Assembly (NCBI GenBank): GCA_038924245.1
Contig: JBCKVB010000005.1
Location: 1-53,839 of the forward strand
Source of the DNA: Gammaproteobacteria bacterium
GTDB taxonomy: Bacteria; Pseudomonadota; Gammaproteobacteria; SURF-13
Direction of reading: 5' to 3'
DNA: 53,839 nt
Position numbers and translations under genes: made by a program. The notes beneath the pieces are model-generated. The model was not told where the DNA came from. It was given only the letters and a program-made list of their open reading frames with translations, and searched no databases. Below, one piece after another: positions 5,526 through 47,531 of the stretch (within the stretch, counting starts at the first letter, position 1; every line of letters begins with the position of its first letter).

Positions 5526-5690
5526 GGAAGCTCTGAATAAGTCCATCCTGGACTTCTCAGAGCACGAAAGGCAAAAAACGTGGCCATAAGAATTATTATG
5601 GTGCCTTTCTTCATTTTTCAAACACTTTCGTGTTTGAAAAATGGCGGTGCATCCCTGCACCGCAGGAACCTCTGATTAATCAGAGATTCC
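5526..5690. mobile_element. 165-bp MITE with IS5-like terminal inverted repeats and CTAA target duplication
   Basis: Ends GGAAGCTCTGAATAA ... TTAATCAGAGATTCC; CTAA at both 5522-5525 (includes the leuS stop) and 5691-5694; internal hairpins; no transposase. Confidence 0.75.
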
Positions 5691-5712
5691 CTAACGAACA
5701 TTAAGAGGGTGA

Positions 5713-5787
5713 GCCGCGAAAGCGGCGAACGCCAGGGATGGCGTGGCCGGTATCTCACGAAGCCGCGGGCGCAGCGCCAGGGATGGC
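5713..5787 (+). promoter_or_regulatory. Structured leader upstream of lptE with two GCCAGGGATGGC hairpins (CsrA/RsmA-site-like) and a GAAA tetraloop hairpin
   Basis: ACGCC-AGGGAT-GGCGT at 5729-5744, GCC-AGGGAT-GGC at 5776-5787, GCCGC-GAAA-GCGGC at 5713-5726. Function is inferred. Confidence 0.4.
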
Positions 5788-5831
5788 AAAGAACAGGTTA
5801 AGGCGAAGGAGTTCGGGGTAAGGAGATATAC

Positions 5832-6314
5832 ATGAGAATAATAACGGTTTTGGTTTTCAGTCTGTTTTTGGCGGCGTGCGGGTTTCATCTGCGCGGCGGC
5901 ATGGAGCAGCTTTCCAGCCTGCCCGCGCTGTATTTACCGGCGGGCGCCATGGGTCTTGCGGGCGAACTGCGCAGCGCCGCGCGTATCAGCGGGGCGAGGC
6001 TGGTGGAGAACAGGGAGGATGCCCAGGCGGTGGTGATACTGGGCGGTGAAACCGTGGAGCGCCACGTGCTGTCGGTGGGCCGCACCGGCAAGGCGCGCGA
6101 GTTTAATCTGGTGTACACGGTGAGCTTCGAGGTGCAGGACAGTCACGGCAAGGCCCTGACCGATACGCAAACGCTGCGGCTGACGCGCGATTACGTGTTT
6201 GACGAAACCCAGGTGCTGGGCAAGGAAGCCGAGGAGTCCGCGTTGCGCGAGGGTCTGCAACGCGACGCCGCCGGGCAAATCCTGCGCCGGGTGCAGGCGC
6301 TTAATATCCAGTAA
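5832..6314 (+). CDS. lptE: LPS assembly lipoprotein LptE
   Basis: Lipobox LAACGFHLRG, RBS AAGGAG, leuS-lptE-holA synteny. Confidence 0.93.
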   Translation: MRIITVLVFSLFLAACGFHLRGGMEQLSSLPALYLPAGAMGLAGELRSAARISGARLVENREDAQAVVILGGETVERHVLSVGRTGKAREFNLVYTVSFEVQDSHGKALTDTQTLRLTRDYVFDETQVLGKEAEESALREGLQRDAAGQILRRVQALNIQ

Positions 6315-6439
6315 TTCCAATTTGCAATCAAAGATGATACCGAGGCGGCAAGGAGTGAGCGAGGAGACAGTACATGAAGTACGGCGACGAGCGAACGACG
6401 CAGCCAACGAAGGTAGCGCTTTGAGTGCGAATTGGAATA
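6312..6439. repeat. ERIC/IRU-like ~127-bp palindromic intergenic element
   Basis: Terminal inverted repeat TTCCAATTTGCAATCAAAG / CTTTGAGTGCGAATTGGAA (17/19 match). Core GGCGGCAAGGAGTGA...TACATGAAGTA...GAACGACGCAGCCAACG resembles the ERIC consensus as recalled. Confidence 0.65.
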
Positions 6440-6455
6440 ACGTGGTTCCCCGCGC

Positions 6456-7502: not shown

Positions 7503-7512
7503 AGGGTAAGCC

Positions 7513-8900: not shown

Positions 8901-9582
8901 GATTGGTATCCTCGGCGGCAGTTTCGACCCCGTCCACTGTGGTCACTTGCGGCTGGCGCTGGAGGCGCGGCAGGAGTTGAAGCTGGACGAAGTGCGCCTG
9001 ATTCCGTGCGGGATACCGCCGCACCGCGCGCCGCCGCGGGCGAGCGCGGAGCAGCGCCTCGCCATGCTGAGCGCGGCAACGCAGGGCGAACCGGGTTTGC
9101 GCGTGGATGACCGTGAAATCATCCGCCCCGGGCCGTCCTATACCGTGGATACGCTGGCATCGCTGCGCACGGAATTTCCTGATACCCCGCTGTGCCTGAT
9201 TCTCGGACTGGACGCCTTTCTTGGGTTGCCTACCTGGCGCCGCTGGCGCGAATTGCTGGACTTCGCGCACATCGCCGTGGCGCACCGCCCCGGATGGTCG
9301 CTCCCGGCTTCCTGCCTCCCGCGACATTGGCACATCCCTGTACGGCAGGAAATGAACATTGCGGGCGAGATGGAGCAGCTCCTCGCCAGATACCGCGTAG
9401 CGGATGCATCCGAGTTGCGCGCGCACAAGGGAGGCCGGATCGTGCTCTGGGCCATGCCCGCGTTGGATATCTCTTCCTCGCGCATCCGCGCCCTGATCGC
9501 GCAAGCGAAAAGCGTGCGTTACATAGTGCCGGACGCAGTCCGTGAAATAATCCGCACCCAACATATTTACAGTTCCACCTAA
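8899..9582 (+). CDS. nadD: Nicotinate-nucleotide adenylyltransferase (with in-frame repeat insertion)
   Basis: [28 protein letters not shown]; GTG start at 8899. Confidence 0.95.
9296..9343 (-). repeat. Intragenic repeat family, 48-bp basic unit, in nadD (strand given = GGA-rich strand)
   Basis: GGTCGCTCCCGGCTTCCTGCCTCCCGCGACATTGGCACATCCCTGTAC; read as [15 protein letters not shown]. Confidence 0.9.
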
Positions 9583-12057: not shown

Positions 12058-13261
12058 CCACTTAAGGATGCAAGAGATGAGACACAAGCTGCGCGAGTGG
12101 GCGCAACGCGCCATGCGCCATGCGCCGTCGGCCTCACGCCACCTCGCGGGCACGTTATGGCTGACGTTCGCCGTGATGATTGTGCTCGCGGCGGCATTAT
12201 TCGCCGCCGCGAGCGTCTTGTTGCCCATGGCGGGCGAAATGCGCGCGGAGCTGGAGTTGCGCGCCAGCCGCGCGGCCGGGCAGCCGGTCAAGATCGGCAA
12301 GCTGTACGCCGACTGGTCATGGCGCGGCCCGGAGGTGCACCTGCGGGAGGTGCAGGTGCTGGACAAAAACGCCACGCGCACGGTGCTGCGCTTCGGCGGC
12401 GCGCGCATGAACGTCAATGTACTAGCCTACCTGCGCGAGCGGCGTCTGGAGGTGAGCCAGCTCACCCTTTCCGGCGCCGCGTTGGTGCTGATGCGCCGCG
12501 CCGACGGCTCCATCTGGATCGAGGGCGTGGAGAATGACGACGGCCGCCTTTTCCAGCAATGGTTGACGCAACAAGGCTATCTCGCCCTGGAGGACAGTGC
12601 AATTGACTGGATGGACGAAGTCAGCGGCGGCGTACGGCGCTTTACCGATGTCAATCTGCGTTTGCGCAGCGACGGCAAACGCCATCAGGTGAGCGTGAGT
12701 CTGGGGCCGCGCGCGGGGTTGAAACAAAATCTGCGGGTGCTGGTGGATGCGAGCGGAGACCTTACCCTGCCCGGCAGCCTGAGCGGTCAATTCCATGTGA
12801 CGGGCAATGGCATTGAGACCGCGCAATGGCTCAAGCATCTGGCCGGGTTTGAGCTGAAGAGCGGCCGGGCGGATATGGAACTGTGGGGCGAGTGGCGGGG
12901 CGAGCAGTTGAATGCGCTGCAAGGCGAGGTGGAGGCGCATGATCTGCGCCTGGCCGGACACGCGGAAGCCGCCGATCTGGCGATCAGCCGCGCAGGCGGG
13001 GAGCTGCGCTGGCAGCGCACCGCGCAGGGCTGGGACCTGGCGTTGCGGCGTTTTGTCGTGGTGCGCGACGGTGTCGCCAGCGCGCCGGCTTCGTTACGTG
13101 TGCTGCGTACGGCGGACGCCGTGGACGGTCAGTTCAGCCTGCTGCGCCTGGAAGATGTCAGCAGCGCGCTGCTGGTCAACCGCGCGGCGGATGCCAAGCT
13201 CAAGGAGTGGCTGCGCGGCGCAGAGGCGCACGGGCAGTTGCACGACGCGCGCGTGCATTTT

Positions 13262-13366
13262 AGTCGCCCCCAGCATCCTGCCCGTCTCTCCCGTGCTGTA
13301 CAGGGACGTACGAATGTCGCGGGAGGCAGGACGCCGGAAGCGACCGACACTAGTGCGTCCCTGCAC
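13262..13366. repeat. Intragenic repeat family, 105-bp nested variant, in yhdP
   Basis: Outer unit interrupted by a complete inverted 48-bp unit; read as SRPQHPARLSRAVQGRTNVAGGRTPEATDTSASLH. Confidence 0.9.
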
Positions 13367-14822
13367 GTCGCCGGCGCCGATCCGTTCGCGCCCGATGCGC
13401 GCTGGTATATCCACACCCGGTTCCGCAACCTGCGCACCTCGCCCTGGCAGTCCGTACCCGGGGTACAGGTGGCAAGCGGCGCGCTGCGGGGCGATCACAC
13501 CGCAGGCGCCCTGCTGTTGCAGGGTGTGCCGCTACGTCTGGATTTTGGCGCGGAGTTGCGCGCGCCACTTGCCTTCGATAGCGCGCGCGGCTGCGTCACC
13601 TGGCGCCAGGGCGCGCAGGGCTGGACGCTGGACAGCGACGAACTGGCGCTGAAAAATTCGGACTTCGATCTGCATCTTCGCGCCGGATTGGAATGGACGC
13701 GCGGCGAGCGTACGCCGCTGGTCAATCTGCGGGCGCAACTGCGGCGCGTCAATATCGCGGCGGTCAGAAAATATCTGCCAGCGCAACGCCTCAGCCCCAA
13801 GGCGTTGCGCTGGCTGGATCAGGCCTTGGTGAGTGGACAGATCGGCAACGTCGCGCTGCTGCTGCGCGGGCGTTTGGATGAGTTTCCGTTCGATGCCCAC
13901 AACGGCAGTTTCGAGGTGCGCGCGAGCGTGAACGATATGGTGTTCGCCTATGCACCCGGCTGGCCCTGGCTGGGTGAGACGGAGGCGGAAGTCGTGTTGC
14001 GCAACCGCGGTTTACAGATTGACGTGGCGAGCGCGAAGATTTTTAATGCGCAGGTGGTGGAGGCGCGCGCGCTGATACCGGACCTGTTCATGCGCGAACC
14101 GCAACTCACGCTACAGGGCAAGGTGCGCGGCCCAACGCCGGACGTGTTGCGTCTGCTCAAGGAGAGCCCGCTCAATAAGCGTCTCGGCCCCTATCTCGCG
14201 GACCTGAGCGCCACGGGGCAGAGCCTGTTGAATCTGGACATGCTGATTCCGATCTCGCCTGAGCCAAACCGCGTGCGGGGTACGCTGGAGTTGCGGGACA
14301 GCGTGCTGCGTATCGCGCGGGAGCTAGCCCCCCCCCATCGAGCTTAACGCCATTAACGGCACGATCAATTTTACCGAGGGCATGACGCTCAGCGGGCGCA
14401 ACATTGCCGTGAGTCTGGGCGGTCTGCAAGGACAGTTGGACATAGGCACGGAAGGCGCCCCCGGAGCGCCACGCGCCACGCTGGTCGAGCTGCGCACCCG
14501 CGCCACCCCGGCGCAGCTCATCAAACAACTGAACGCGCTGGCGCCGAACGTCAAGGCGGACTGGTTCAAAGGCCTGGAAGGCGAGACCGATTGGGTCGCC
14601 GGATTGCGCCTGTCCGAGAATGAGGGGCAAAAGATGCAGGCCACGCTGATGCTCAGCTCCTCGCTGCGCGGGGTGACGGTGCGGCTACCGGCGCCGCTCG
14701 CCAAACCGGCGGAGGAACCACTCGCGCTGCGTTTCGCCATGGACTTGGGCAAGGCGCGGGAGCGGCGCTTCACGCTGCGCTACGGCGAACGCTGGAATGG
14801 AATTTTTGAGATGACGGACGAC

Positions 14823-14870
14823 GTGCAGGGACGCACGAGTGTCGCGGGAGGCGGGACGCCGGGAGCGGCG
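14823..14870 (+). repeat. Intragenic repeat family, 48-bp unit, in yhdP
   Basis: GTGCAGGGACGCACGAGTGTCGCGGGAGGCGGGACGCCGGGAGCG; read as [15 protein letters not shown]. Confidence 0.9.
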
Positions 14871-15011
14871 GGCAAGCAGGGCTGGAGCATCAAGCGCGGC
14901 GAACTGCGTCTGGGCGGCGCCGATGCGCTGTTGCCCGCGCAGGGCCTGCGCGTCAGCGGCGAGGCCGCACACCTGGCGCTCGACCTCGACGGGTGGCGGG
15001 AGTTTTTCGAC

Positions 15012-15107
15012 GTGCAGGGACGCACTAGTGTCGCGGGAGGCACGACTCCAGGGATGGAGGAGGTAGAATCGCGTCGGGAACAGCGATCGAGGATGCCGGG
15101 AGCGACA
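15012..15107 (+). repeat. Intragenic repeat family, 96-bp variant, in yhdP
   Basis: Basic unit plus a 48-bp module; read as [32 protein letters not shown]. Confidence 0.92.
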
Positions 15108-15918: not shown

Positions 15919-16249
15919 CCAATAATCTGGTCATGAATGGCCCCGCGGCGCGGATCAACGTTTCCGGGCGCACCGGCCTTGCCGCCAGGGATTACGATCA
16001 GATCGTCACCGTGACACCGGAAATCAGCGCGAGTCTGCCGCTGGCCGGGGCCTTGGGCGGTCCGGTCGGGATTGGCATCGGCACCGGCATCTACCTGTTT
16101 GAAAAGCTGTTCAAGCCGGGCATTGACGGTATCGCGCGCGTGCAATACACGGTGAAGGGTTCGTGGCAGGACCCGGTCATCGAGCCGCTCAAGTCCGGCG
16201 ACAAGACGCCGGATATACAGGCGGCGCCCGCCGGCTAAAGGGTTGCGGC
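15919..16249 (+). repeat. 331-bp direct repeat, copy 1 (yhdP 3' end)
   Basis: Identical by eye to 23207-23537. Confidence 0.95.
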
Positions 16250-22102: not shown

Positions 22103-22106
22103 CCTT

Positions 22107-22141
22107 GGAAAGCTCTGAATAAGTCCGTCCCGGACTTCTCA
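22107..22141 (+). repeat. Isolated left end of the IS5-like MITE
   Basis: GGAAAGCTCTGAATAAGTCCGTCCCGGACTTCTCA matches 5526-5559 and overlaps the stop codon of the phosphodiesterase gene. Confidence 0.8.
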
Positions 22142-22918
22142 ATGCCGGGCGAGCGTATAACGCTTGCCGGATTCCAGCAGCATACCGCGCGTGCTATGCA
22201 GCAGCGGTTCGATGACGTCGCGCAGCTCTTGCGCATATTGCGGTTTGAGGTGCGAAATCCAGAGTTCCGGCATGGGCGAGAACAACGCGAGGTCGCGCCT
22301 CAGCATCGACGGCGTCATGTGTCCGGTGATGTGCGCGAGTTCCTCCAGATGGTCCGGATAAGACAGTTCGCAAATCAGTATGTCCAGCGGACCCGCCTCG
22401 GCAAGATGGCGCAGCGAACGCGTGTCGCCGGTGAAGGCCGCGCGGACGCCGTCGCGCGCGAGAATATAGGATAGCCCCGGCACGGTGTGATCCATGGGCA
22501 CGCCGGTGATGTGCCAGCCGTCGATCTCGATGGTTTCGTGTTCCGCGAGTTCCTGAAAACGCACCAACATATTTTCCGGCTGTTCAAACAGCGGCAGCTC
22601 GGAGAAGTCGGGATAAATCTGCCAGTTGAAGACATGCTGTTTGAGGGCGGCCAGGGTCTCGGCGCGCGCATAAAGCGTCACCGGCAGTGTGCGCGCGAGA
22701 TAAATGCGCTCCAGAAACAGCGGCAGCAGCGCGATGTGATCCTGGTGCGAGTGGGTAAGGAACACATGATCGATTTTCAGCATGGCTTCGGCGGAGAGCG
22801 TGCCCAGCCCGGTGCCGCAATCGATGAGGATGGTGTCGCCGAGGCGGAACGAGGTGGTAAAGAGATTGTCGCCGACGCCGCCGCTGCAACCCAGGATATG
22901 CAACGTAGATTTCTTCAT
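22139..22918 (-). CDS. Metallo-beta-lactamase-fold cyclic nucleotide phosphodiesterase (class II-like)
   Basis: LGCSGG, LIDCGTG, THSHQDH (HxHxDH), HTVP, FTGDT, HMTP, SHLKP; convergent with the cyclase; start ATG 22918. Confidence 0.8.
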   Translation of the reverse strand: MKKSTLHILGCSGGVGDNLFTTSFRLGDTILIDCGTGLGTLSAEAMLKIDHVFLTHSHQDHIALLPLFLERIYLARTLPVTLYARAETLAALKQHVFNWQIYPDFSELPLFEQPENMLVRFQELAEHETIEIDGWHITGVPMDHTVPGLSYILARDGVRAAFTGDTRSLRHLAEAGPLDILICELSYPDHLEELAHITGHMTPSMLRRDLALFSPMPELWISHLKPQYAQELRDVIEPLLHSTRGMLLESGKRYTLARH

Positions 22919-23890: not shown

Positions 23891-23917
23891 CGCTCCCGCG
23901 CCGTTCGAGGAAATCAA

Positions 23918-29090: not shown

Positions 29091-29957
29091 ATGATCCGGG
29101 CCAATACCACACGCGTCAGCCTGCAGCCCGCTTACGTGTTGCACCATCGCCCCTACCGGGACAGCAGTTTGCTGCTGGAGATATTCACGCCGGACCATGG
29201 CCGCGTGGGTTTGGTGGCGCGCGGCGCGCGCTCGCCCAAGTCGCGCCTATACGGGGTGCTGCAACCGTTTCAGCCGCTGCTCATCTCGTGGGTGGGGCGC
29301 GGCGAACTCGCCACGCTGAGCGGCGCGGAGGCGAACGGCCCGCCGCAACGCCTGCAAGGGAAAAGCGTCATCAGCGGTTTTTATATCAATGAACTGCTGC
29401 TGCGCTTGCTGCACCGCCACGATCCGCATGCCGCGCTGTTTGACGGCTACGCCCGGACCTTGCCGCTGCTGGCGCAAGCGGTCGCTCCCGGCGTCCTCGA
29501 TCGCTGTTCCCGACGCGATTCTACCTCCTCCATCCCTGGAGTCGTGCCTCCCGCGACACTAAGCCTTCCCTGGCTGGCAGAACAGCGCGCGCTACGTATC
29601 TTTGAAAAGCATTTGTTAAAAGAGATCGGTTATGCGCTGGTGCTGGGTCACGAAGTGGAAAATGGCGCGCCCATCGAGCCGGACCAGAGGTACACTTACC
29701 GGCTGGAGCAGGGGCCGGTGCGATCCGATGGGGCAGGACACGGCATCGCGCTGCACGGTGCGAGTTTGTTGTCTCTTATGAATGAACAGTTGAGCGATGA
29801 ACAAAGTCTGCGTGAGGTTAAATCGCTGATGCGCGCCGCGCTCGCCCTGTATCTCGGCGACAAGCCGTTGCAAAGCCGCGCCTTGCTGGTCAATTTACAG
29901 AAAACCTTGAACCTGCCCAGGAGCAGCATCGCAGTGCAGGCGGTTGACGCCGCATGA
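29091..29957 (+). CDS. recO: DNA repair protein RecO (with in-frame repeat insertion)
   Basis: [29 protein letters not shown]; era-recO-pdxJ synteny. Confidence 0.95.
29480..29575 (-). repeat. Intragenic repeat family, 96-bp variant, in recO
   Basis: Read as [31 protein letters not shown]. Confidence 0.92.
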
Positions 29958-30760
29958 CGGCGCGCTCATCCATTTTGCTGGGGGTCAATATTGACCACAT
30001 CGCCACGCTGCGCCAGGCGCGCGGAACGCGCTATCCTGATCCGGTACAAGCCGCCATCGAGGCCGAGCAGGCAGGCGCGGACGCGATCACGTTACACCTG
30101 CGCGAAGACCGGCGCCACATCCAGGAGCGCGACGTGGAAATGTTGCACGGCATTTTGCAGACGCGCATGAATCTGGAGATGGCGGTGACCGAGGCGATGC
30201 TGGCGTTCGCCGCGCGCATCAAACCGCGGGACTGCTGCCTGGTGCCGGAGCGGCGCGAGGAGCTGACCACCGAAGGCGGGCTGGACGTGGCGGGCCAGCC
30301 GGAACGCATCGGCGCGGCCTGCGCGCGCTTGCGGGACGCGGGTGTGCGCGTGTCGCTGTTCATTGACGCTGATAACCATCAAGTGGATGCGGCGGCGCGC
30401 GCGGGCGCACCGGTGATTGAAATCCACACCGGCCATTATGCCGATGCGGAAGACGCAGCCCTGCGTGAGCAAGAGTTGCAGCGCATCGTGCGCGCCATGG
30501 AGCATGGAAAAAATCTCGGCCTGCAAGTCAACGCCGGACATGGCTTGAATTATCACAACGTGCAGGCCATCGCGGCCTTGCCCGGTATCAGCGAACTCAA
30601 CATCGGTCACGCCATCGTGGCGCGCGCGCTGTTCACCGGGTTCGGCGCGGCGGTGCGCGAGATGAAACAGTTGCTGCGCGACGCACAGGGAAGAGCGCCA
30701 GCGAAGGGTTCAGCGATAGCGAAGGGTTCTGCTAGTGTCGCGGGAGGCAGGACGCCGTGA
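29954..30760 (+). CDS. pdxJ: Pyridoxine 5'-phosphate synthase (repeat-derived C-terminal tail)
   Basis: [35 protein letters not shown]. Confidence 0.97.
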
Positions 30761-30766
30761 GCGACC
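30683..30766 (+). repeat. Intragenic repeat family, 84-bp variant, forming the pdxJ C-terminus and stop
   Basis: Basic unit plus two 18-bp modules; GGA changed to TGA within the repeat. Confidence 0.85.
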
Positions 30767-30776
30767 GAGGCGCGCC

Positions 30777-31171: not shown

Positions 31172-32065
31172 ATGGACTACCCCACCATCGAAGGCTTCAT
31201 CGGCAACACGCCCTTGGTGCGCTTGCAGCGCTTGCCGGGCGAGACGAGCAACGTCGTGCTGGCCAAGCTGGAGGGCAACAACCCGGCCGGTTCGGTGAAA
31301 GACCGTCCGGCGATGAGCATGATTAAACACGCCGAGGCGCGCGGCGAGATCAAACCTGGCGACACCCTGATCGAGGCCACCAGCGGCAACACCGGCATCG
31401 CGCTCGCCATGGCGGCGGCGATACGCGGCTACCGGCTGCTGCTCATCATACCGGAGCACATGAGCGTGGAGCGGCGCGCGGTGATGAAGGCATTCGGCGC
31501 CGAGATCATATCGGTCACGCGCGCGCAGAGCATGGAAGGCGCACGCGATCTTGCCCTACGCATGCAGGCCGATGGCAAGGGCCGCGTGCTCGATCAGTTC
31601 GCCAACCAGGACAATCCGCGCGCGCATTACGAGGGCACCGGGCCGGAGATATGGCGCGACACGCAAGGCGGAATCACCCACTTTGTCAGCTCCATGGGCA
31701 CCACCGGCACCATCATGGGCTGCGCGCGCTTTTTCAAGGAAAAAAATCCGGCCATACAAATCGTCGGTGTGCAGCCCAGCGAGGGTTCGCAAATCCCCGG
31801 CATCCGCCGCTGGCCGCCAGCTTACCTGCCCAGGATTTATGACCCCAAGCGCGTGGACCGCATCATGGAAGTCAGCCAGGCCGAGGCCGAGGCCACGACA
31901 CGCGAGTTGGCCGCGCGCGAGGGTATCTTCGCGGGCATCTCCTCCGGCGGCGCCGTACATGCCGCGTTGCTCCTGAGCAAGGAGGTGCGCGATGCGGTAA
32001 TCGTCACCATCGCGTGCGACCGCGGCGACCGCTATCTCTCCACCGGCGTGTTCCCGGACCATTAA
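31172..32065 (+). CDS. cysM: Cysteine synthase B
   Basis: KLEGNNPAGSVKDR, EATSGNTG, IPGIRRWP, CDRGDRYLSTG. Confidence 0.96.
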   Translation: MDYPTIEGFIGNTPLVRLQRLPGETSNVVLAKLEGNNPAGSVKDRPAMSMIKHAEARGEIKPGDTLIEATSGNTGIALAMAAAIRGYRLLLIIPEHMSVERRAVMKAFGAEIISVTRAQSMEGARDLALRMQADGKGRVLDQFANQDNPRAHYEGTGPEIWRDTQGGITHFVSSMGTTGTIMGCARFFKEKNPAIQIVGVQPSEGSQIPGIRRWPPAYLPRIYDPKRVDRIMEVSQAEAEATTRELAAREGIFAGISSGGAVHAALLLSKEVRDAVIVTIACDRGDRYLSTGVFPDH

Positions 32066-32068
32066 GAT

Positions 32069-32189
32069 GCTGGAAAAGTCCATCCCTGTCCTTTTCCAGC
32101 GCGTAAAGCAAAAAATGCGATTTTTGCTTTACGCCATTTTTAAAATGCAGACGCAGTGTCCTGAAAATGACGGCACGTCCTTGTGCCGC
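32069..32189. repeat. Multi-hairpin intergenic element related to the MITE at 5526
   Basis: GCTGGAAAAG..CATCCCTG..CTTTTCCAGC; GCGTAAAGCAAAAA..TTTTTGCTTTACGC; CATTTT..AAAATG; CGGCAC-GTCCTT-GTGCCG. Confidence 0.65.
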
Positions 32190-32194
32190 ACACT

Positions 32195-32995
32195 ATGAAC
32201 ATTTTGGTATTCGACATCGAAACCGTCCCCGACGTGGCGGGCGGACGCCGGCTTTATGCGCTCGATGGCCTCACGGACAAACAGACCGCCGAGGCGATGT
32301 TCAACGTGCGCCGCCAGGAGACCGGCGGTTCAGATTTTCTCCGCCACCATTTACAACGCATCGTGGCGATCTCAGCGGTGCTGCGCACGCGCGATCATGT
32401 GAAGGTGTGGTCTCTGGGTGAGCCGGATTCACCTGAAAAAGAGCTGATCGAACGCTTTTTCGACGGGATTGAAAAGTACACGCCGACGCTGGTGTCCTGG
32501 AACGGCGGCGGGTTTGATTTGCCGGTGCTCAACTATCGCGCGCTGTTGCACGGCGTCGCCGCGCCGCGTTACTGGGAGACGGGCAAGGAAGACCCCGGCT
32601 TCCGCTACGATAATTATCTCAGCCGGTTTCATTGGCGCCATACCGATCTGATGGACGTGCTTTCCTCTTACCAGGCGCGCGCCACCGCCCCGCTGGATGG
32701 AATCGCCGCCCTGCTGGGCTTTCCCGGCAAGCTGGGCATGGACGGGTCGCAGGTGTGGGAGCGCTATCTGCAGGGCGAGATCGCCGCGATCCGCGATTAC
32801 TGTGAGACCGACGTGCTCAATACCTATCTCATTTACCTGCGCTTCGAACTGATACGCGGCCATTTGACGGCCGAACACTACGCAACAGAGTGTCAGCTTC
32901 TGCGCGATGTGCTGGCCAAGGAAGACAAACCCCACCTGCGCGAATTTCTTGCCGCTTGGCGGTCGCTCCCGGCGTCCTGCCTCCCGCGACACTAA
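32195..32995 (+). CDS. PolB-like 3'-5' exonuclease (DEDD family)
   Basis: VFDIETVPD, LVSWNGGGFDLPVL, HTDLMD, YCETDVLNT. Confidence 0.88.
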   Translation: MNILVFDIETVPDVAGGRRLYALDGLTDKQTAEAMFNVRRQETGGSDFLRHHLQRIVAISAVLRTRDHVKVWSLGEPDSPEKELIERFFDGIEKYTPTLVSWNGGGFDLPVLNYRALLHGVAAPRYWETGKEDPGFRYDNYLSRFHWRHTDLMDVLSSYQARATAPLDGIAALLGFPGKLGMDGSQVWERYLQGEIAAIRDYCETDVLNTYLIYLRFELIRGHLTAEHYATECQLLRDVLAKEDKPHLREFLAAWRSLPASCLPRH

Positions 32996-33008
32996 GCCAT
33001 CCATGGCT
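32961..33008 (-). repeat. Intragenic repeat family, 48-bp unit, supplying the exonuclease C-terminus and stop
   Basis: GGTCGCTCCCGGCGTCCTGCCTCCCGCGACACTAAGCCATCCATGGCT; read as [10 protein letters not shown]. Confidence 0.92.
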
Positions 33009-33036
33009 GTCGCTGATCCACGCAACCTTGCGCCTC

Positions 33037-34451: not shown

Positions 34452-37400
34452 CAATCCACTTGCGCGCGTTGCGGAACATGTGCAGCCACGGGCTCTCCTC
34501 GCCCCACTCTTCGGGATGCCAGGAGAGGGCCATCGTGCGCACCACGCGCTCCGGGTGCGGCATCATGATGGTGTAGCGCCCGTCGGGCGTGGTGAGGCCC
34601 GCGATGCCGAGCGGCGAGCCGTTGGGATTGGCGGGGTAGGTTTCGGTGGGCTGGCCATAATTATCCGCCCAGCGCAGTGCGACGATACCGGCATCGAGTG
34701 CTTGTTGGGCGCTGCCGCCGGAACGAAATTCGGCGCGGCCCTCGCCGTGCGCCACCGCGAGGGGCAGTTGCGCGCCCGCCATGTCTTGCAAGAACAGCGA
34801 GGGCGATTTCGGGATTTGCACCAGCGACAGGCGCGCCTCGAATTGCCCGGAAAGGTTGCGCGCGAACCCCGGCCAGTGCTCCGCGCCGGGGATGAGTTCA
34901 TGCAGGTGCGACATCATCTGGCAGCCGTTGCAGATGCCGAGACCAAAGCTATCCTTGCGATTAAAGAAGGCGCTGAATTCGTCGCGCGCGCGCGCGTTGA
35001 ACAAGATTGAATTGGCCCAGCCACGCCCCGCGCCGAGCACGTCGCCGTAGGAAAATCCGCCCGGCGCGGCGAGGCCCTGAAAGTCGCGCAGGGAAACGCG
35101 GCCTTCCAGGATATCGCTCATGTGCACGTCCACACAGGCGAAACCCGCGCGGTCGAACGCCCAGGCCAGCTCCACCTGGCCGTTCACGCCTTGTTCGCGC
35201 AGGATGGCGACGCGCGGGCGCACGCCTTGTTTGATATACGGCGCCGCGGCATCGTGATCCGGGTCGAAGCTGAGCTTTACGTTCAGACCGGGGTCGGCGG
35301 CATCAAGCAGGGCATCGTACTCCTGCTGCGCGCACGCCGGGTTGTCGCGCAGCGACTGCATGCGATAAGAAGTTTCCGACCAGGCGCGGTGCAAGTTCAC
35401 GCGCGTGTCTGAAAGAACCGTTTTGCCGTGGTGCGTGAATACAATGTGATCCGTGCCATTCAAGGCGCCGCACGCGTGGCTGCATTCGCCGAGTCCTGCC
35501 TGCTCCAACGCCTCAAGCACCGCCTGCTTGTCTGCCATACGCGTTTGCACCACGGCGCCGAGCTCTTCATTAAACAGCGCGCCAGTCGCTCCCGGCGTCC
35601 TCGATCGCTGTTCCCGACGCGATTCTACCTCCTCCATGCATGGAGTCGTGCCTCCCGTGACACTAAGCCGTCCCTGGCTGGCGCAAGGGCCGGGTACGAG
35701 CGTATCCAGATGCACGGTGACGCCGGCATGACCCGCGAAGGCCATCTCGCATACGGCGGTAAACAGGCCGCCGTCGGAGCGGTCGTGATAGGCGAGCAGC
35801 AGGCCTTTTTCATTGAGCGATTGAATGGCGTTAAAGAACGACTTGAGTAATTCAGCATCCGGCGCATCCGGCACGTCGCGCACCATTTGGCCATACACCT
35901 GTGCCAGCGCCGAACCGCCCAAGCGGTTTTTGCCCAGGCCCAGATCAATCACGATGAGCGCGGTCTCGCCTTGATTAGTGCGTAGTTGCGGCGTAAGCGT
36001 CTGGCGGCAATCCAGCACCGGCGCGAAGGCGCTCACGATGAGCGACAACGGCGCGGTGACGGATTTTTCCTCGCCCTGCTCGCGCCACACGGTTTTCATG
36101 GAGAGCGAATCCTTGCCCACGGGGATGGCGATGCCGAGTTGCGGGCAGAGTTGCATGGCGACGGCGTGCACGGTGTCGTACAACGCGGCGTCCTCGCCGG
36201 GGTGGCCCGCGGCGGCCATCCAGTTGGCGGAGAGCTTGATGGCGGAAATACCGGCGATGCGCGCGGCGGCGATGTTGGTGATGGCCTCGGCGACCGCCAT
36301 GCGCCCCGAAGCGGCGGGGTTGATGAGCGCGAGCGGCGCGCGTTCGCCCAGCGCCATCGCCTCGCCGGTGTGGGTGTCAAAACCGCTGCCGGTGACGCCC
36401 GCATCCGCGACCGCGACCTGCCACGGGCCCACCATTTGATCGCGCGTGACCAGGCCGCCCACCGTGCGGTCGCCGATGGTGATGAGAAAGCGCTTGTCCG
36501 CCACGGTGGGGAAACGCAGCACGCGTAGCGCGGCCTGGTGCAGGTCAATGCGCGTATCAAATAGCGGCAGCGCTGGGGTATCAGTGTGCCGCACATCGCG
36601 CAGCATTTTCGGCGGTTTGCCGAGTAGCATGGGCAGCGGCAGGTTGACCGGCTCATTATGGAAATGCGCGTCGCTCACGAGGAGTTGTTGTTCGGCGCTG
36701 ACGCTGCCCACAACGGCGTAAGGACAACGCTCGCGCGCGCACAATACCTTGAATTCATCCAGGCGTTCGGCGGACACCGCCAGCACGTAACGCTCCTGCG
36801 CCTCGTTGCTCCAAATCTGCATGGGCGACATGCCGGGATCGTCGTTCAAAATCGCGCGCAGCTCGATACGCGCTCCGCGTTCCGCGCCGTGCACCAGTTC
36901 CGGCAGCGCATTGGACAGGCCGCCCGCGCCGACATCGTGTATGGAGAGGATGGGATTGCCGTCACCCATCTGCCAGCAGCGGTCTATGACCTCTTGGCAG
37001 CGGCGCTGCATCTCGGCGTTGTCGCGCTGCACCGAGGCGAAGTCGAGCGTCTCGTCACCGCTGCCCGCTGCGATAGAAGACGCCGCGCCGCCGCCGAGGC
37101 CAATCAGCATGGCCGGCCCGCCCAGTACAATGAGCGCGCTGCCTTGCGGCAAATCATGCTTCTCCACATGCATGGGAGAAATGTTGCCCACGCCGCCCGC
37201 CAACATGATGGGCTTGAGATAGCCGCGCGACTCCATGCCCTGTTGCGCCGGGAATTGCGCCTCGAAGGTGCGGAAATAGCCGCAGATGTTGGGACGGCCG
37301 AATTCATTGTTGAACGCCGCCGCGCCTAGCGGCCCCTCCAGCATGATTTGTAGACTCGACGCGACGTGCGCCGGTTTGCCGTAATCGAATTGCTCCCACG

Positions 37401-38541
37401 GCTGCGGGGCATCGGGGATACGCAGGTGCGAGACGGAAAAGCCGCACAAACCCGCCTTGGGCTTCGCGCCGCGCCCGGTCGCGCCTTCATCGCGGATTTC
37501 GCCGCCGCTGCCGGTGGCCGCGCCAGGATAAGGCGAGATCGCGGTGGGGTGGTTGTGCGTCTCCACCTTCATCAGGATGTGCGCGTACCCCCTGTGCTGA
37601 CGATATTCGTTCTTTCCGCCTGCGGGGAAAAAGCGCGCCGTCTCGAAACCCTCGATCACCGAGGCGTTGTCTTTATACGCCGACAGGATGCCATGCGGAT
37701 TTTTTTCCGAGGTGTGGCGGATCATGGCGAACAGGGATTTTTCCCGTGGCTTGCCGTCTATGATCCAGTCGGCGTTGAAAATCTTGTGGCGGCAGTGCTC
37801 GGAATTCATCTGCGCGAACATCATCAGTTCCGCGTCGCTGGGGTTGCGCTTGAGGCGCAGGTAGTTGTCCAGCAGATAGGCGATTTCGTCCGCGCTGAGC
37901 GCGAGCCCAAGTTGCCGGTTGGCGTCCAGCAGCGCCTGTTTTCCATCGGTTAAAATATCAACAGTGGTCAGCGGCGCGGGTTGAGACTGAGAGAACAGGG
38001 CGTGCGCCGCCTTGGGGTCGCGGCACACCTGCTGCGTCATGCGGTCGTGCACGAGTGGGGCGATCAAATCAATCTCGCCCTGTTGCAGGGGCGCGGCGTT
38101 TTGCGTGGTGAAATAATAAGCCGTGCCGCGCTCGATGCGCTTGATCTTGTCCAGGCCGCACAAACGCAGGATGTCGCTCGCCTTGCTCGACCAGGGCGAG
38201 CGCGTACCGGCGCGCGGTGTCACCAGCAACGACGTGCAGGGACGCACTAGTGTCGCGGGAGGCACGACTCCAGGGATGGAGGAGGTAGAATCGCGTCGGG
38301 AACAGCGATCGAGGACGCTGGGAGCGACCGGGGGAGTTGCGACGACGGATTCGCTTGCGTGCGCCGCGAGGATTTTTACCAACGCCGCGTTTTCGTCCGG
38401 CGCGAGCGCGCCGGTCAGCTCGGCGAAATACACCCACTCGGCGCGCAGTTGTGTGATGCGCGGGGCAGCCGCCCGCATCGCGCGCAGCAGTTTGTCGAGG
38501 CGGAAACCAGACAGCGCCGCCGCGCCGCGCAGCCGTAACAT
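34447..38541 (-). CDS. purL: Phosphoribosylformylglycinamidine synthase, large type (two in-frame repeat insertions)
   Basis: [43 protein letters not shown]. Confidence 0.98.
35584..35679 (-). repeat. Intragenic repeat family, 96-bp variant, in purL
   Basis: Read as [32 protein letters not shown] just before ALFNEELG. Confidence 0.92.
38234..38329 (+). repeat. Intragenic repeat family, 96-bp variant, in the purL N-terminal domain
   Basis: Read as [32 protein letters not shown] just before LLVTPR. Confidence 0.92.
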
Positions 38542-38558: not shown

Positions 38559-39770
38559 TTATTTGAGTTGTTCGTGCAGCAGGGTCAGTATCCGGCTGGA
38601 GGTTTCCGAGTTGTCGCGCACGCCATCCTTGTTGAGCACCTCGATGCGCGTGCTGTCCGCGGTCGTCCCCAGCGACCCGCCTCCCGCGACACTAGTAGAA
38701 CCCTTCGCTGGCGCTCTTCCCTGTACGTCGTCGCTCGCCACGCTGACCAGATATTGTTCGGTCGGCGGCTTTTTGTCGTCCTTGCCCCAGAATTTCATCC
38801 TGGACATGAGGCCTTCTTTTTTCTCCTGATCCTTGAGCGGATCGGCGTAACGCACGTAGTACAGGCCGCGTGAGCGGTCACGGTCTTCCACGGTGAAGCC
38901 GATGCGATCCAGCGCGAGGCCGGTGCGGCGCCAGGCGCGTGAAAAATCCTCTTGCAGGGCGAGCGCGGCGCCGCCGTTGCCGTCTTTGGTCAGCGTGGCG
39001 CGCGGCGTTTCGGTCTCGCGCGCCAGCAGGGTCTTGGTTTTCTTTTCGTCCACGCCGAAGAACACCATCAGGTGGTTAAGCATCTCCGCCTCCAGCTCCG
39101 GGTCGGAAGGGCGCGGCTGCCAGATGGTCGAGTCGCCATGCGCCACTTCCTCCACGCCGCTGTGGCTCAAGAAAAGTTCGGTGCCGCCCGCCTCCTGGGT
39201 GCGCTCCAGGCGCACGCGGAACTTGTCGCGCGTCGCGGCGGAGTAGAGATTTTCGAACACCTTGCTCAGCACCGAGCGGATGGGATCTTTCGGAATGTCG
39301 GCGCGGTTTTCCAGCCAGTCGGTCTCCATGATGCCGATGCGTGGGTCTTCCTGCTTGATGAGATAACCGTTTTGCAGCCAGAATTCGCGCACCTTGGGCC
39401 ACCACTGATCGGGCTCGCCCTGCATCATCAGCCAGCGCTTGTTGCCGTCGCGCTCCACGCGCACGTTGTCCTGGCCGGGCAGGACATTCTCGCGCTGCGC
39501 CACTTGCGGGTCGCTGCGCTCGCCGCTGTACACGGAATAGGTCGCCGTGCCGCCGGGGCTGATGTCGGGCACGGCGAGCGTGTCGTCCACGGTGGAGCTG
39601 GTGAGGTCGGGCGGTACCTCCAGCGGCGGGAGCGAGGAGCTCTTTTTATATTCCACGCGCTTTTCCGGGTCCACCTCATCCAGCTTGGCGGTGATCGCCT
39701 TGCACCCGCCGAGCGCAGCGAGCGTTAACAACAAAAGTCCGCAATGTAACAGCCGTTTTCTAAAATGCAT
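38559..39770 (-). CDS. bamC: Outer membrane protein assembly lipoprotein BamC (with in-frame repeat insertion)
   Basis: Lipobox [42 protein letters not shown]; downstream of dapA. Confidence 0.9.
38661..38726 (-). repeat. Intragenic repeat family, 66-bp variant, in bamC
   Basis: Basic unit plus one 18-bp module; read as [22 protein letters not shown]. Confidence 0.85.
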
Positions 39771-43856: not shown

Positions 43857-43860
43857 CATG

Positions 43861-43946: not shown

Positions 43947-43950
43947 CGCG

Positions 43951-44820: not shown

Positions 44821-44826
44821 CGGCGC

Positions 44827-45498
44827 TTGATGTTTGTCGTAGGACTCACGGGCGGCATCGGCGCGGGCAAGTCCATAGTGGCGGAGTTGTTCCGCGCGCA
44901 GGGCGTGCCGGTGCTGGACGCCGATGTCATCGCCAGGGAATTGGTGCAGAAGGGCAAGCCCGCGCTGACGCGCCTCGTGGCGCTGTTTGGGCGCGAGATA
45001 CTGGATGATAACGGCGCGCTCAATCGCGCCAGGCTACGCGCCCTGGTGTTCGGCGATGCGGCGGTCGCTCCCGGCGTCCTGCCTCCCGCGACACTGGCAC
45101 ATCCGTGTGCGGCGTGGCGCAGGCAACTGGAGGCGCTACTGCACCCCTTGATTCATGAGGAAATGCAAGTCCGCTTGACGCAACTCAAGACGCCCTACTG
45201 TATCGTGTGCATACCTTTACTGGTCGAGACCGGGTGGACGGCCAGCGTGCAGCGCGTACTGGTGATAGATGCCCCGGAGGAGCTGCGCCGCCGCCGCGTC
45301 GTGGCGCGTGATGGTTTGAGCGCGGCGGAGTTCAACGCCATCCTGGCCGCCCAGGCCGGCCGTGACGAGCGGCTCGCCGCGGCGGACGACGTGATCGTCA
45401 ATGATGGCGGACGTGATATGCTCAAGCAGCGGGTAGGCGAGCTGCACCGCCACTATTCGCAACTGGCGGCCGCCATCTCCACCTCCGGCAAAGTATAA
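44827..45498 (+). CDS. coaE: Dephospho-CoA kinase (with in-frame repeat insertion)
   Basis: VGLTGGIGAGKS, DADVIAR, LLHPLI, IPLLVE. Confidence 0.95.
   Translation: MMFVVGLTGGIGAGKSIVAELFRAQGVPVLDADVIARELVQKGKPALTRLVALFGREILDDNGALNRARLRALVFGDAAVAPGVLPPATLAHPCAAWRRQLEALLHPLIHEEMQVRLTQLKTPYCIVCIPLLVETGWTASVQRVLVIDAPEELRRRRVVARDGLSAAEFNAILAAQAGRDERLAAADDVIVNDGGRDMLKQRVGELHRHYSQLAAAISTSGKV
45063..45110 (-). repeat. Intragenic repeat family, 48-bp unit, in coaE
   Basis: Read as [16 protein letters not shown]. Confidence 0.92.
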
Positions 45499-45535
45499 TG
45501 ACGACAGCCATGACACATCTTACAGAGACATTTGA

Positions 45536-46303
45536 GTGATCGAGCAGGTTTTCTATGAACAACCGCTGAGCGAGCGCATACGCGCCTTTCTGCGTCTGGA
45601 GCTGTTGTTTCTTCAAGCCAATCACACCCTACTCGGCGCCAGCCCGTTGGACAGCCGCGTTACTCTTTCCACGCTGTTTGAGATTCTCAACGTCATGGGC
45701 CGCGCCGACCTCAAGGGGGAGATGTTAAAGGAGCTGGAACGGCACGGCGCCGCGCTCACCCGTCTGGAGCAGGTGCCGGAGGTGGATCAACAGCGGCTCA
45801 ATCAAATACTCGATCAACTGGATGCGCAAGTAGACCGCCTGCACGCCGTCGAAGGCCAGCTTGGCCAGACATTGCGCCAGAATGAATTTATTAACAGCAT
45901 CCGGCAGCGCACCAGCATTCCCGGCGGCACCTGTGATTTTGATCTGCCGGCCTATCATTTCTGGCTGGAGCGCCCGGTGGCGGAACGCCTGCGTGATTTA
46001 CAGGAGTGGTTGAATACTTTGGACCCGGTGCGCAGCGCCGTAGCGTTGATATTGAGCCTGATCCGCGAAAGCGCCGCACCGAGCCGGGAGCTCGCGTGCG
46101 CGGGCTTCCTGCAAAAATCGCTGGATGCGGATATTCCCTGTCAACTGGTGCGCGTCGGTGTGCCGCTCACGCTGCCTTACTATGCCGAAATCAGCGGCGG
46201 CAAACACCGCATCACGGTGCGTTTCATGGAGTACGTCAAGGATGGCCGCGCCGCGCAGGCCGCGCAAGATGTGGAGTTTGGTCTGTACTGTTGCCTGATA
46301 TAA
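45536..46303 (+). CDS. zapD: Cell division protein ZapD
   Basis: YEQPLSERIRAFLRLE, IPGGTCDFDLP, EISGGKHR; follows coaE. Confidence 0.93.
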   Translation: MIEQVFYEQPLSERIRAFLRLELLFLQANHTLLGASPLDSRVTLSTLFEILNVMGRADLKGEMLKELERHGAALTRLEQVPEVDQQRLNQILDQLDAQVDRLHAVEGQLGQTLRQNEFINSIRQRTSIPGGTCDFDLPAYHFWLERPVAERLRDLQEWLNTLDPVRSAVALILSLIRESAAPSRELACAGFLQKSLDADIPCQLVRVGVPLTLPYYAEISGGKHRITVRFMEYVKDGRAAQAAQDVEFGLYCCLI

Positions 46304-46304
46304 A

Positions 46305-46331
46305 GGAACCTCTAACTTAATCAGAGGTTCC
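46305..46331. repeat. Collapsed MITE (two ends only) between convergent zapD and Nudix genes
   Basis: GGAACCTCT-AACTTAATC-AGAGGTTCC; encodes the final GNL* of the Nudix gene. Confidence 0.7.
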
Positions 46332-47412
46332 CCAGTATCCGCGCGGCCACCTCTTCCGGCTGAGGCGCATCCCATAGCGCGCTACGCACGGCGATGCCTT
46401 GCGCGCCGTGCCGGAAGGCGAGCGCCAGGTGTTCCGCTTGCGCCAGCCAGGGACGGCTTAGTGTCGGTCGCTTCCGGCGTCCTGCCTCCCGCGACATTCG
46501 TACGTCCCTGTACAGCACGGGAGAGACGGGCGGGACGCCGGGAGCGACCATCCCGCCCAAGGCATAAACCGGCAGCGTGGCGAGTTCCGTCAAACGTTGC
46601 AGGCCTTGCCAGCCGAGCGCTACGGCGCCGGGATGGGTAGGCGTGGGGAGCACTGGGGCCACCACCGCGAAGTCGGCGTGGATGCGCATCGCGTGTTCAA
46701 GCTCCGCCTGGTTGTGACACGAGGCCGCTACCCAATGACGCTCACCGAGCGGACGCCGGTCCAGCTCCAGCAGGCGTGCGCCGGTCAGATGCACGCCGTG
46801 CGCCCCGATCTCATTAACCAGCGCGGGCGCGGCGTTGAGCAAAAGCCGTGCGTCATAAGGCGCGCACAATTCGAGCGCTTGTTGCACCAGTTTCCGGTAA
46901 TGTTTTTCATCCAGGGTTTTGGCGCGCAACTGAATCAGGCGCACACCGCCCTGGAGGCAGCGTTCCAGCCGGTCCAGAAAGGCCCTGTCGTCCTGTTCCG
47001 GTTCGCCGGTAATAAGATAGAGCACCGGCAGCCGCACGGCGTTTATGATGGGCAGGTTGGCGGCGGGATAATCCCGTTGCGATAGCTTGTCTTGCGCCAC
47101 CCATTCGATGCGTTGGCCTTCCCTGGAGTGCGGCTCACCGAGAAACTGATCCACGCGCCACACATCAAGCAAAACAGATTTATCCGGATAATGATGCGGA
47201 ATACGTATCAGGGGACGGGCGCGCGTGATGGTGATGCCAAGCTCTTCATGCAGCTCGCGCTTGAGCGCCTCCAGCACCTGCTCTGTATCTTCCACCTTGC
47301 CGCCGGGAAATTCCCACAGCCCGCCTTGATGTTTGTGCGCGGGACGCAGCGCAAGCAACACCTCGCCACGCCGGTTGAAGATGGCCGCCGCCGCGACGTG
47401 CTGATAGCTCAC
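46321..47412 (-). CDS. MutT-like Nudix hydrolase fused to a thiamine-phosphate-synthase-like domain (with in-frame repeat insertion)
   Basis: HQGGLWEFPGGKVE..ALKRELHEELGI Nudix box; IQLRAK, GVHL, ASCH, PVYALGG. Confidence 0.9.
   Translation of the reverse strand: MSYQHVAAAAIFNRRGEVLLALRPAHKHQGGLWEFPGGKVEDTEQVLEALKRELHEELGITITRARPLIRIPHHYPDKSVLLDVWRVDQFLGEPHSREGQRIEWVAQDKLSQRDYPAANLPIINAVRLPVLYLITGEPEQDDRAFLDRLERCLQGGVRLIQLRAKTLDEKHYRKLVQQALELCAPYDARLLLNAAPALVNEIGAHGVHLTGARLLELDRRPLGERHWVAASCHNQAELEHAMRIHADFAVVAPVLPTPTHPGAVALGWQGLQRLTELATLPVYALGGMVAPGVPPVSPVLYRDVRMSREAGRRKRPTLSRPWLAQAEHLALAFRHGAQGIAVRSALWDAPQPEEVAARILGNL
46445..46549. repeat. Intragenic repeat family, 105-bp nested variant, in the Nudix/ThiE gene
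   Basis: Read as VAPGVPPVSPVLYRDVRMSREAGRRKRPTLSRPW. Confidence 0.92.
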
Positions 47413-47426
47413 CTGCTGTTTACGCC

Positions 47427-47531
47427 GTACACGGATGTGTCAGTGTCGGTCGCTTCCGGCGTCCTGCCTCCCGCGACATTCGTACGTCCCTGTACAGCAC
47501 GGGAGAGACGGGCAGGACGCCGGGAGCGACC
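47427..47531. repeat. Repeat family, 105-bp nested variant, intergenic between argJ and the Nudix gene
   Basis: Near-identical to 46445-46549 except for the terminal hairpin stem. Confidence 0.92.

Follow-up and report, generated by a model that had tools for sequence, protein, structure and literature searches.

Structured repeats with AYGGAY loops have been described in Pseudomonadota as TwoAYGGAY (RF01731; Weinberg 2010) and have been predicted to bind the RNA-binding regulator CsrA (Gardner and Eldai 2015, PMC4333381). In Pseudomonas, they are multicopy, highly variable in copy number, and associated with arrays of repetitive extragenic palindromic (REP) sequences, with 1,693 of 16,086 matches lying within coding sequence; this preprint makes no mention of CsrA (bioRxiv 10.64898/2026.09.22.753630). 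The sequence preference of CsrA itself is summarized by the consensus RUACARGGAUGU, obtained by systematic evolution of ligands by exponential enrichment (SELEX), in which ACA and GGA are invariant and GGA lies in the loop (PMC4347634). Here, we analyze a C-ANGGAN-G hairpin that recurs along a 53,839-nucleotide (nt) stretch of DNA from a Gammaproteobacteria bacterium of the SURF-13 lineage (contig JBCKVB010000005.1 of assembly GCA_038924245.1, positions 1 to 53,839, forward strand), hereafter called the window. We found that this hairpin is a real module, probably with selection acting on its structure and on four loop bases, and that at least three dispersed repeat families share it as a building block and have visibly traded it. 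TwoAYGGAY is the closest published relative of these repeats, but it sets two hairpins on a common basal stem, whereas the repeats studied here consist of two independent hairpins (a 51-nt unit), three hairpins (the X module), or five (the YZ element).

The window is contig C5 of the assembly of this organism (G000), which comprises 1.38 Mb in 78 contigs at 62% G+C and is 82.6% complete. The relatives compared were 19 other genomes of the taxonomic family (20 including G000); the same-genus genomes, G001 to G003, are 81–92% identical to the window in flanking genes. Repeat families were delimited by nhmmer on the whole G000 assembly, and gene orientations were called by codon-usage gene prediction, with gene identities confirmed by Pfam. 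All 13 hairpins listed in the original prediction were recovered, with centers as follows.

GGA on the plus strand: 14829, 15018, 38240, 13304, 46451, 15052, 5736
GGA on the minus strand: 35672, 29568, 33001, 45103, 5653, 32179

We compared these hairpins with a background of 200 dinucleotide shuffles of the window and with a control in which the loop was reversed to NAGGNA. The motif CANGGANG occurs 69 times in the window, compared with 31.6 ± 5.0 times in shuffled sequence (none of 100 shuffles reached 69), and perfect 4-bp stems closing an ANGGAN hexaloop occur 19 times, compared with 1.8 ± 1.3 times after shuffling (maximum 7) and with a single occurrence of the reversed-loop control. Across the whole assembly, 142 ANGGAN hairpins with 4-bp stems stand against 27 controls, and 60 with 5-bp stems stand against 6; AGGGAT is the commonest hexaloop among the 5-bp-stem hairpins of the assembly. 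The hairpin had been proposed to be shared by several repeat families, and we found it in at least three: YZ accounts for the sites at 5644 and 32171, X for the one at 5729, and the 51-nt family for the remaining listed sites. Altogether, these results confirm the initial observation in a stronger form than first stated. None of the three elements is represented in Rfam: a scan of the window at gathering thresholds gave no match, and a permissive scan of positions 5500–5860 returned nothing relevant. Similarly, the RF01731 model (gathering threshold 43 bits) gave no match at E ≤ 1 in G000, with 58 candidates scored; control genomes were also without a match, so that no known positive validates this search.

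The 51-nt family, with 56 matches in G000, provides the clearest view of the hairpin. Each unit reads G(A/C)C, a head of the form GYRC-ANGGAN-GYRC, a 4-nt spacer (TAGT, CAGT, TAAT, or GAAT), a 29-nt bulged palindrome, and a final C; the bases before the head are GAC in most copies and GCC or GCT in others. The 29-nt core, GTCGC-GGGA-GGC-AGGAC-GCC-GGGA-GCGAC, is nearly invariant at all positions. Its inner GGC-AGGAC-GCC hairpin, which the original prediction had also pointed out, is present with pentaloop counts of A86, G86, G88, A86, and N in 89 copies. Both internal loops of this second hairpin are GGGA, and one strand of the unit displays four unpaired GGA (in AGGGAC, GGGA, AGGAC, and GGGA). 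Long forms of the unit hold a 48-nt module within the core loop, with its own CTCC-AGGGAT-GGAG hairpin, and further forms of 69 and 87 nt hold one or two 18-nt modules in the head. About 15% of the copies, which are carried by several genes, have a different head (AGCGAAGGGTTCTGCT) that contains no ANGGAN loop.

Covariation was assessed on 83 heads of the ANGGAN-bearing kind (“type A”), drawn from G000 and from 387 kb of G007. Their stem pairs are 94.6% Watson-Crick, compared with 67% when the 3′ halves are shuffled among copies (maximum 75% in 2,000 shuffles), and six complementary stems occur: GTAC/GTAC (26), GCAC/GTGC (18), GTGC/GCAC (10), and AGCC/GGCT (8), with GCGC/GCGC and GGCC/GGCC (2 each) being rarer. 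The closing C-G pair is present in 80 of the 83 heads. In the loop, A (79), G (83), G (79), and A (80) are conserved at the first, third, fourth, and fifth positions, whereas the second (G55/T10/C11/A7) and sixth (C41/T23/A16/G3) are free. RNAalifold predicts the hairpin from an alignment of 42 copies, with three of four pairs changed on both sides; the structure-pair count is 97.6% paired, compared with 91.4% after shuffling (0 of 500 shuffles), and the covariation score is 0.198, compared with 0.077 after shuffling and at most 0.102 with slid partners (0 of 500 shuffles reach the observed value). The claim that the stem covaries around a conserved loop is therefore borne out by pair statistics, RNAalifold, and the covariation score alike. 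Folded singly as DNA, the sequences have z-scores of −1.6 to −2.2, and their minimum-energy folds draw in flanking bases, which makes single-sequence folding uninformative here.

The X module is 86 nt long and folds into three hairpins, two of which have ANGGAN hexaloops. It has 18 nhmmer copies in G000, and all 18 lie just behind a co-oriented gene. RNAalifold shows two-sided changes at 9 of its 18 base pairs, and all 30 loops in 15 aligned copies are ANGGAN. A covariance model of X finds matches in 19 of the 20 family genomes, at 1–70 copies each. For 35 copies at the best loci of the relatives (L091–L119), 27 have a co-oriented downstream feature, and 19 lie 16–28 nt upstream of a co-oriented tRNA. 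The same arrangement, with X 18 nt upstream of a tRNA, occurs in three G000 cases (C10:36320-36405, C25:2863-2938, and C35:4908-4996). As such, X has the appearance of either a leader element of pre-tRNAs or an insertion that targets tRNA genes. In several genomes, X is also found 22–25 nt behind a tRNA-Pro on the opposite strand.

The third family, YZ (~158 nt; 27 nhmmer matches in G000), is a chain of five hairpins between inverted ends AAGGAA(C/G)CTCTGA, with two loops being AGGGAT or AGGATG. It qualifies as a miniature inverted-repeat transposable element (MITE), having terminal inverted repeats, no coding content, multiple copies, and presence/absence differences among relatives. The only DDE transposase locus examined, on contig C17 of G000, is without YZ ends.

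These families trade parts. An 18-nt module (AGAGCG..GCGAAGGGT) immediately follows the AGGGA of the hexaloop in certain heads of 51-nt units and, likewise, in one YZ copy (G000 C11:30653-30838; window 30690-30767 and 38640-38712), which shows that parts have been exchanged between the two families. Possibly the hexaloop serves as a favored site of joining; alternatively, the families swap parts. On contig C14, downstream of a gene for a Y1 transposase (L001, 1680-1740), we also observed a 32-nt mini-element in which a GTCGC...GCGAC stem surrounds GCGTGC-AGGGAT-GCGC, followed by a hairpin with a 12-bp stem and an ATGGAT loop; an insert related to the mini-element is found inside three YZ copies.

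Most hairpins of the window are cargo of recent mobile repeats, i.e., the 51-nt and YZ families, and occur in both orientations. At 12 of the 13 window sites examined, the site is empty in every same-genus orthologue with mapped flanks, so the window copies are recent insertions. In the orthologues, clean gaps of 51 nt (nadD, coaE) or ~99 nt (recO, purL) stand in place of the units. At the bamC spot, G001 alone has a 51-nt copy, of the different, A-head subtype, which points to an independent insertion. The spacer between leuS and lptE is 11–12 nt long in G001 and G003 and ~300 nt long in G000, where it holds YZ and X. There, the insertion of YZ altered the final codons of leuS, which now takes its stop codon from the end of the element; the new lptE leader contains several GGA motifs, with X 60 nt ahead of the start codon and then an AAGGAG ribosome site. 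The 29-nt core occurs in 17 of the 19 other family genomes, spanning several genera, at 1–104 copies each; the sequence is thus kept at the level of the repeat family and not at single sites. A target-site duplication was inconsistent for the 51-nt unit, with a 3–4-nt direct repeat (CGCC or CGAC) at 12 of 52 copies and none at 40. No replication-strand bias relative to GC skew was found for the 51-nt family (13:21) or for YZ (8:12). The repeats of the window are as follows.

5521..5692, minus strand: YZ element, delimited by nhmmer and alignment, with GCGGTGC-AGGGAT-GCACCGC and the Z hairpin (loop AGGATG)
5707..5790, plus strand: X module in the lptE leader, with ANGGAN hexaloops at 5729 and 5778
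9295..9350, minus strand: 51-nt unit in nadD, antisense, head GTAC-AGGGAT-GTGC; a 51-nt gap in three orthologues
13291..13373, plus strand: composite 51-nt unit in yhdP, sense, with a second, inverted head at 13345-13373 (minus strand); ~88 nt absent from the G003 and G001 orthologues
14818..14869, plus strand: 51-nt unit in the second yhdP frame, sense, head GTGC-AGGGAC-GCAC; a 39–51-nt gap in three orthologues
15005..15106, plus strand: long 99-nt form in yhdP, sense, with the 48-nt CTCC-AGGGAT-GGAG module in the core loop; absent from orthologues
22104..22144, minus strand: solo Z hairpin of YZ at the junction of two convergent genes
29481..29582, minus strand: long form in recO, antisense, heads AGCC-AGGGAA-GGCT and CTCC-AGGGAT-GGAG; flanks only 3 nt apart in G001 and G003
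30690..30767, plus strand: B-head 51-nt unit with extra 18-nt modules at the 3′ end of pdxJ, sense, its head without an ANGGAN loop; flanks 0 nt apart in G001 and G003
32064..32190, minus strand: partial YZ before a PolB-type exonuclease gene, with CGGCAC-AAGGAC-GTGCCG; ~121 nt missing from the G003 alignment
32960..33015, minus strand: 51-nt unit at the 3′ end of the exonuclease gene, antisense, AGCC-ATGGAT-GGCT, supplying the stop codon; G003 flanks 13 nt apart
35585..35687, minus strand: long form in purL, sense, head AGCC-AGGGAC-GGCT; flanks 4 nt apart in three orthologues
38228..38328, plus strand: long form in purL, antisense, heads GTGC-AGGGAC-GCAC and CTCC-AGGGAT-GGAG; flanks 5 nt apart in three orthologues
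38640..38712, minus strand: B-head unit in bamC/nlpB, sense; G002 and G003 empty
45062..45115, minus strand: 51-nt unit in coaE, antisense, GCAC-ACGGAT-GTGC; flanks 8 nt apart in three orthologues
46438..46549, minus strand: composite unit (two cores, two heads) in a mutT-thiE fusion gene; flanks 4 nt apart in G001 and G002
47420..47531, minus strand: second composite unit, intergenic, 91% identical to 46438-46549; flanks 0–5 nt apart in G001 and G002

The yhdP gene is read as two frames, 12068-14347 and 14382-16238 (Pfam YhdP 7-673 and 718-1224), 34 nt apart; both halves carry repeat insertions, and the arrangement is either a true split or a sequencing/frame problem. The 3′ end of the second frame (15919-16218) is 100% identical over 300 nt to 23207-23506, 7.3 kb away. 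Close to the latter, 23639-24177 contains the starts of short genes in tandem duplicate, with 15-nt repeats rich in Ala/Pro; they resemble duplicated small lipoprotein-like genes.

Of the 56 copies of the 51-nt unit in G000, 42 lie inside coding sequence, mostly distant from start codons. Pfam domains span the repeats in nadD, yhdP (two frames), recO, pdxJ, the PolB-type exonuclease gene, purL, bamC/nlpB, coaE, and the mutT-thiE fusion. With the frame kept and orthologues lacking the insertion, the family fits in-frame intragenic palindromic elements. It resembles in this respect the Rickettsia palindromic elements and intragenic REPs, short palindromes that lie in frame in housekeeping genes and are translated, whose abundance is species-dependent and which have no dedicated transposase (Di Nocera, De Gregorio and Rocco 2013, PMC3733652). 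The same paper describes CGTC REPs, with an 8–9-bp stem starting with A-T, a 4–5-nt loop, and a CGTC end, and GTAG REPs, with a GTAG head. We considered and rejected an identity with CGTC REPs, given that the 51-nt unit combines a head made of a hexaloop on a 4-bp GYRC stem with an adjoining bulged palindrome of 29 invariant nt. Two further features of the G000 copies concern reading frames: the third reading frame of antisense copies terminates in a stop, and three genes have the unit at their extreme 3′ end, where it provides the stop codon.

What maintains the loop is a separate question from what the hairpin is. We tentatively favor, at somewhat less than an even chance, the explanation that CsrA-type RNA recognition preserves the loop, with mobile families spreading it. 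The shape is that of a CsrA site. Like the hairpins bound by CsrA, RsmA, and RsmE (e.g., PDB 2jpp), those studied here have a GGA hexaloop, an A before the GGA, and a C-G closing pair, and their variable loop positions are the N positions of the CANGGANG consensus. The commonest stem-loop, GTAC-AGGGAY-GTAC, is near the SELEX consensus, and each unit offers at least two sites, separated by ~26 nt in the 51-nt unit and by ~45 nt in X. Full matches to the 12-mer SELEX consensus number only three in the genome. One of them had been singled out in nadD (GTACAGGGATGT, minus strand, ~9343); the match itself is correct, but this copy is antisense to nadD.

The protein is also available in the lineage. 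Among the 19 relatives, csrA is found above the Pfam cut-off in 15, with one further weak match, and it is present in all three same-genus genomes; the CsrA of G001 is canonical, and its best match among solved CsrA/RsmA structures has an E-value of 2e-28. In G000, PF02599 gave no match in an assembly that is 82.6% complete. Because the flanks of the locus, tRNA-Ser(GCU), and tRNA-Arg(ACG) are missing as well, the missing csrA is best explained by an assembly gap. Hence, although the check for csrA called for in the original prediction came back empty in G000 itself, the locus is unassembled there and the gene is canonical in the lineage, and the argument that a lack of csrA would speak against CsrA does not apply.

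Under this explanation, a transcribed X would display GGA loops in pairs, to which the lineage's canonical CsrA dimer could bind. Sense-oriented copies of the other families would, by accident, also present GGA loops to CsrA, and the repeats together would add CsrA-binding capacity to the transcriptome.

X occurs in a co-oriented cluster of csrA, tRNA-Ser(GCU), and tRNA-Arg(ACG) at all seven csrA loci examined, representing at least four genera, and it stands directly behind csrA at six of the seven (one being a weak match and one lying at a contig end); at the locus of G014, X is found only between tRNA-Ser and tRNA-Arg. The csrA loci with X are as follows.

L073, 3460-4153 (G003)
L015, 785-1656 (G009)
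L013, 798-1659 (G007)
L012, 1490-2349 (G014)
L014, 906-1659 (G012)
L091, 1405-1937 (G002)
L072, 4251-4637 (G001)

This position could reflect a functional link of X to CsrA. Only the X family behaves as an RNA element, and it is in X that the hairpin most likely acts as RNA.

Several observations weigh against CsrA recognition, above all for the other two families. The position of X beside csrA could equally be a by-product of the general tRNA linkage of X. One relative, G013 (97% complete), is without a csrA match, yet it has 16 core and 2 X copies. Within genes, copies of the 51-nt unit are found sense and antisense at 23:19 in G000 and 23:13 in G007 (46:32 in total), and intergenic copies are of mixed orientation. 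An intact hairpin is as frequent among sense copies (28 of 36) as among antisense ones (18 of 26; Fisher p = 0.56). Internal G·T and A·C mismatches, counted on the GGA strand of 200 hairpins, are 8 versus 8 and thus give no sign that RNA is made from the GGA side in particular. In the 51-nt unit, the second hairpin is sequence-invariant and does not covary, and it therefore looks like a target of sequence-specific DNA recognition. Lastly, 17 of the 27 YZ copies have their Z end directly against the stop codon of an opposite-strand gene, so the mRNA of the abutting gene carries the complement.

Unlike known CsrA sites, moreover, most copies here lie deep in coding regions or antisense and not at ribosome-binding sites, and they are young insertions. 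Since the window copies of the 51-nt unit and YZ lie in either orientation, they are not, as a class, evolved CsrA operators of host genes. The lack of sense bias noted in the original prediction stands, although its tally of five to five does not: we count ~7 sense to 5–6 antisense in the window. For the class as a whole, GGA is not confined to the transcribed strand, whereas in X it is. The broader proposal, in the original prediction, of repeats as dispersed CsrA sites finds no support for most copies, which are young, lie in both orientations, and show equal G·T and A·C counts. Likewise, a derivation from CsrB/Rsm-type RNA found no support: there was no Rfam match in the regions scanned, nor any convincing ANGGA-dense locus, and no 300-nt stretch of the incomplete assembly holds more than seven ANGGA. 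In the literature on CsrA with REP or MITE sequences, no title or opening of an abstract links CsrA to repeat elements. Overall, the CsrA interpretation is partly supported, with the strand-specific X as the only serious candidate for CsrA binding.

The strongest competing explanation, which we regard as unlikely but far from negligible, is that the hairpin is a signal at the DNA level, i.e., a single-stranded or cruciform hairpin bound or nicked by the enzyme that mobilizes the repeats (for example, of the HUH/Y1 type), that its loop is kept because this enzyme reads it, and that its likeness to a CsrA site is coincidental. A transposase site in single-stranded DNA had been offered as the alternative in the original prediction, and it fits the mobility and youth of the elements (12 of 13 sites empty, and neither YZ nor X between leuS and lptE in G001 and G003). 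It would also account for the absence of bias to the transcribed or the replication strand, the 8-to-8 ratio of G·T to A·C, the invariant, noncovarying 29-nt core, and the 18-nt module placed exactly behind AGGGA in two families, as if at a cut or join point. The sequence GCGAAGC, present in X, forms a very stable DNA mini-hairpin, as reportedly described by Hirao and colleagues.

The search for an enzyme gave a mixed picture. G000 has three Y1_Tnp (IS200-like) genes, so that hairpin repeats and such genes share one genome, as in systems of REPs and REP-associated tyrosine transposases (RAYTs), and Y1 genes are most frequent in the repeat-rich G007 (9 genes, 104 copies). However, the Y1 genes (L001, L003) have inverted repeats of their own on either side, unrelated to these hairpins (AAAGGGGTCA... 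and GGGTCACATCTTGTAT...), which leaves the transposase proposal without direct support. RAYT genes flanked by unrelated long inverted repeats do exist (PMC3733652). An identity with REP/RAYT elements (REPINs) was rejected on two grounds: the repeats do not flank Y1 genes, and their spacer is not a fixed GTAG. Moreover, no Y1 gene was found in G001 (98% complete, 18 copies, and a private bamC insertion), in G013 (97%, 16 copies), or in G017 (80%, 101 copies). Transposase genes are often lost from draft assemblies. In five genomes, neither TnpB nor a reverse transcriptase was found, which leaves an RNA-copy route or a TnpB partner unsupported as well; an IS110-type gene gave one match, in G000 only.

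Features of the repeats themselves also sit poorly with a DNA signal. With its ordinary terminal inverted repeats, YZ should be able to move without hairpins in its interior, but it has retained them, with covarying stems. X is strictly oriented with transcription. An arbitrary 6-nt loop would fit ANGGAN on either strand in less than 1% of cases (16/4096 × 2), and a single transposase signal is awkward to reconcile with the presence of the same hairpin in YZ, the 51-nt unit, and X.

CsrA recognition can also be taken further than we favor, such that the hairpin would be a portable CsrA-binding cassette that mobile repeats carry into genes, 3′ ends, and pre-tRNA leaders. We consider this version doubtful. 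If it held, a sizable portion of the transcriptome, including messages of essential genes such as lptE, the leader of which was replaced as a whole here, would gain CsrA sites of high affinity in a time no longer than a species lasts, and X in the csrA-tRNA-Ser-tRNA-Arg transcript would be a built-in CsrA sponge or feedback element. Mobile DNA would then continually rewire and buffer a global post-transcriptional regulator.

A different factor might instead recognize the hairpin, either an RNA-binding protein or RNase acting at pre-tRNA leaders or 3′ ends, or a protein that reads CAGGGAYG in duplex DNA in either orientation; this is improbable. The placement of X 16–28 nt from tRNA 5′ ends at 19 of 35 loci suggests a part in the processing of tRNA transcripts, and the indifference of two families to orientation would be natural for a duplex-DNA site. 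However, no candidate was identified, and covarying stems around a fixed loop argue for a folded single strand and not for a duplex site.

At least as improbable is a passenger hairpin with no function of its own, spreading as part of successful repeats, its stems produced by palindrome self-correction (templated repair inside a hairpin) and exchange between copies and its loop conserved through youth: the copies are indeed recent, modules pass between families, and ~15% of the 51-nt units have spread with a head that lacks the ANGGAN loop, but loop positions 2 and 6 are free while A, G, G, and A are kept at 95–100% across doubly substituted stem subfamilies, the same loop pattern recurs in X, and the same core is found in 17 of the 19 other family genomes, in several genera.

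Returning to CsrA recognition, its significance depends on whether binding occurs. If there is no binding, then these repeats are a warning case, in which a perfect motif with covariation can arise within selfish DNA. If sense copies do bind CsrA, however, jumping repeats could alter both the set of messages under this regulator and the amount of free CsrA. At least 140 hairpins would be involved in a small genome (<2 Mb), linking mobile DNA to post-transcriptional control, and the published but unexplained AYGGAY-loop repeat RNAs would gain a testable function.

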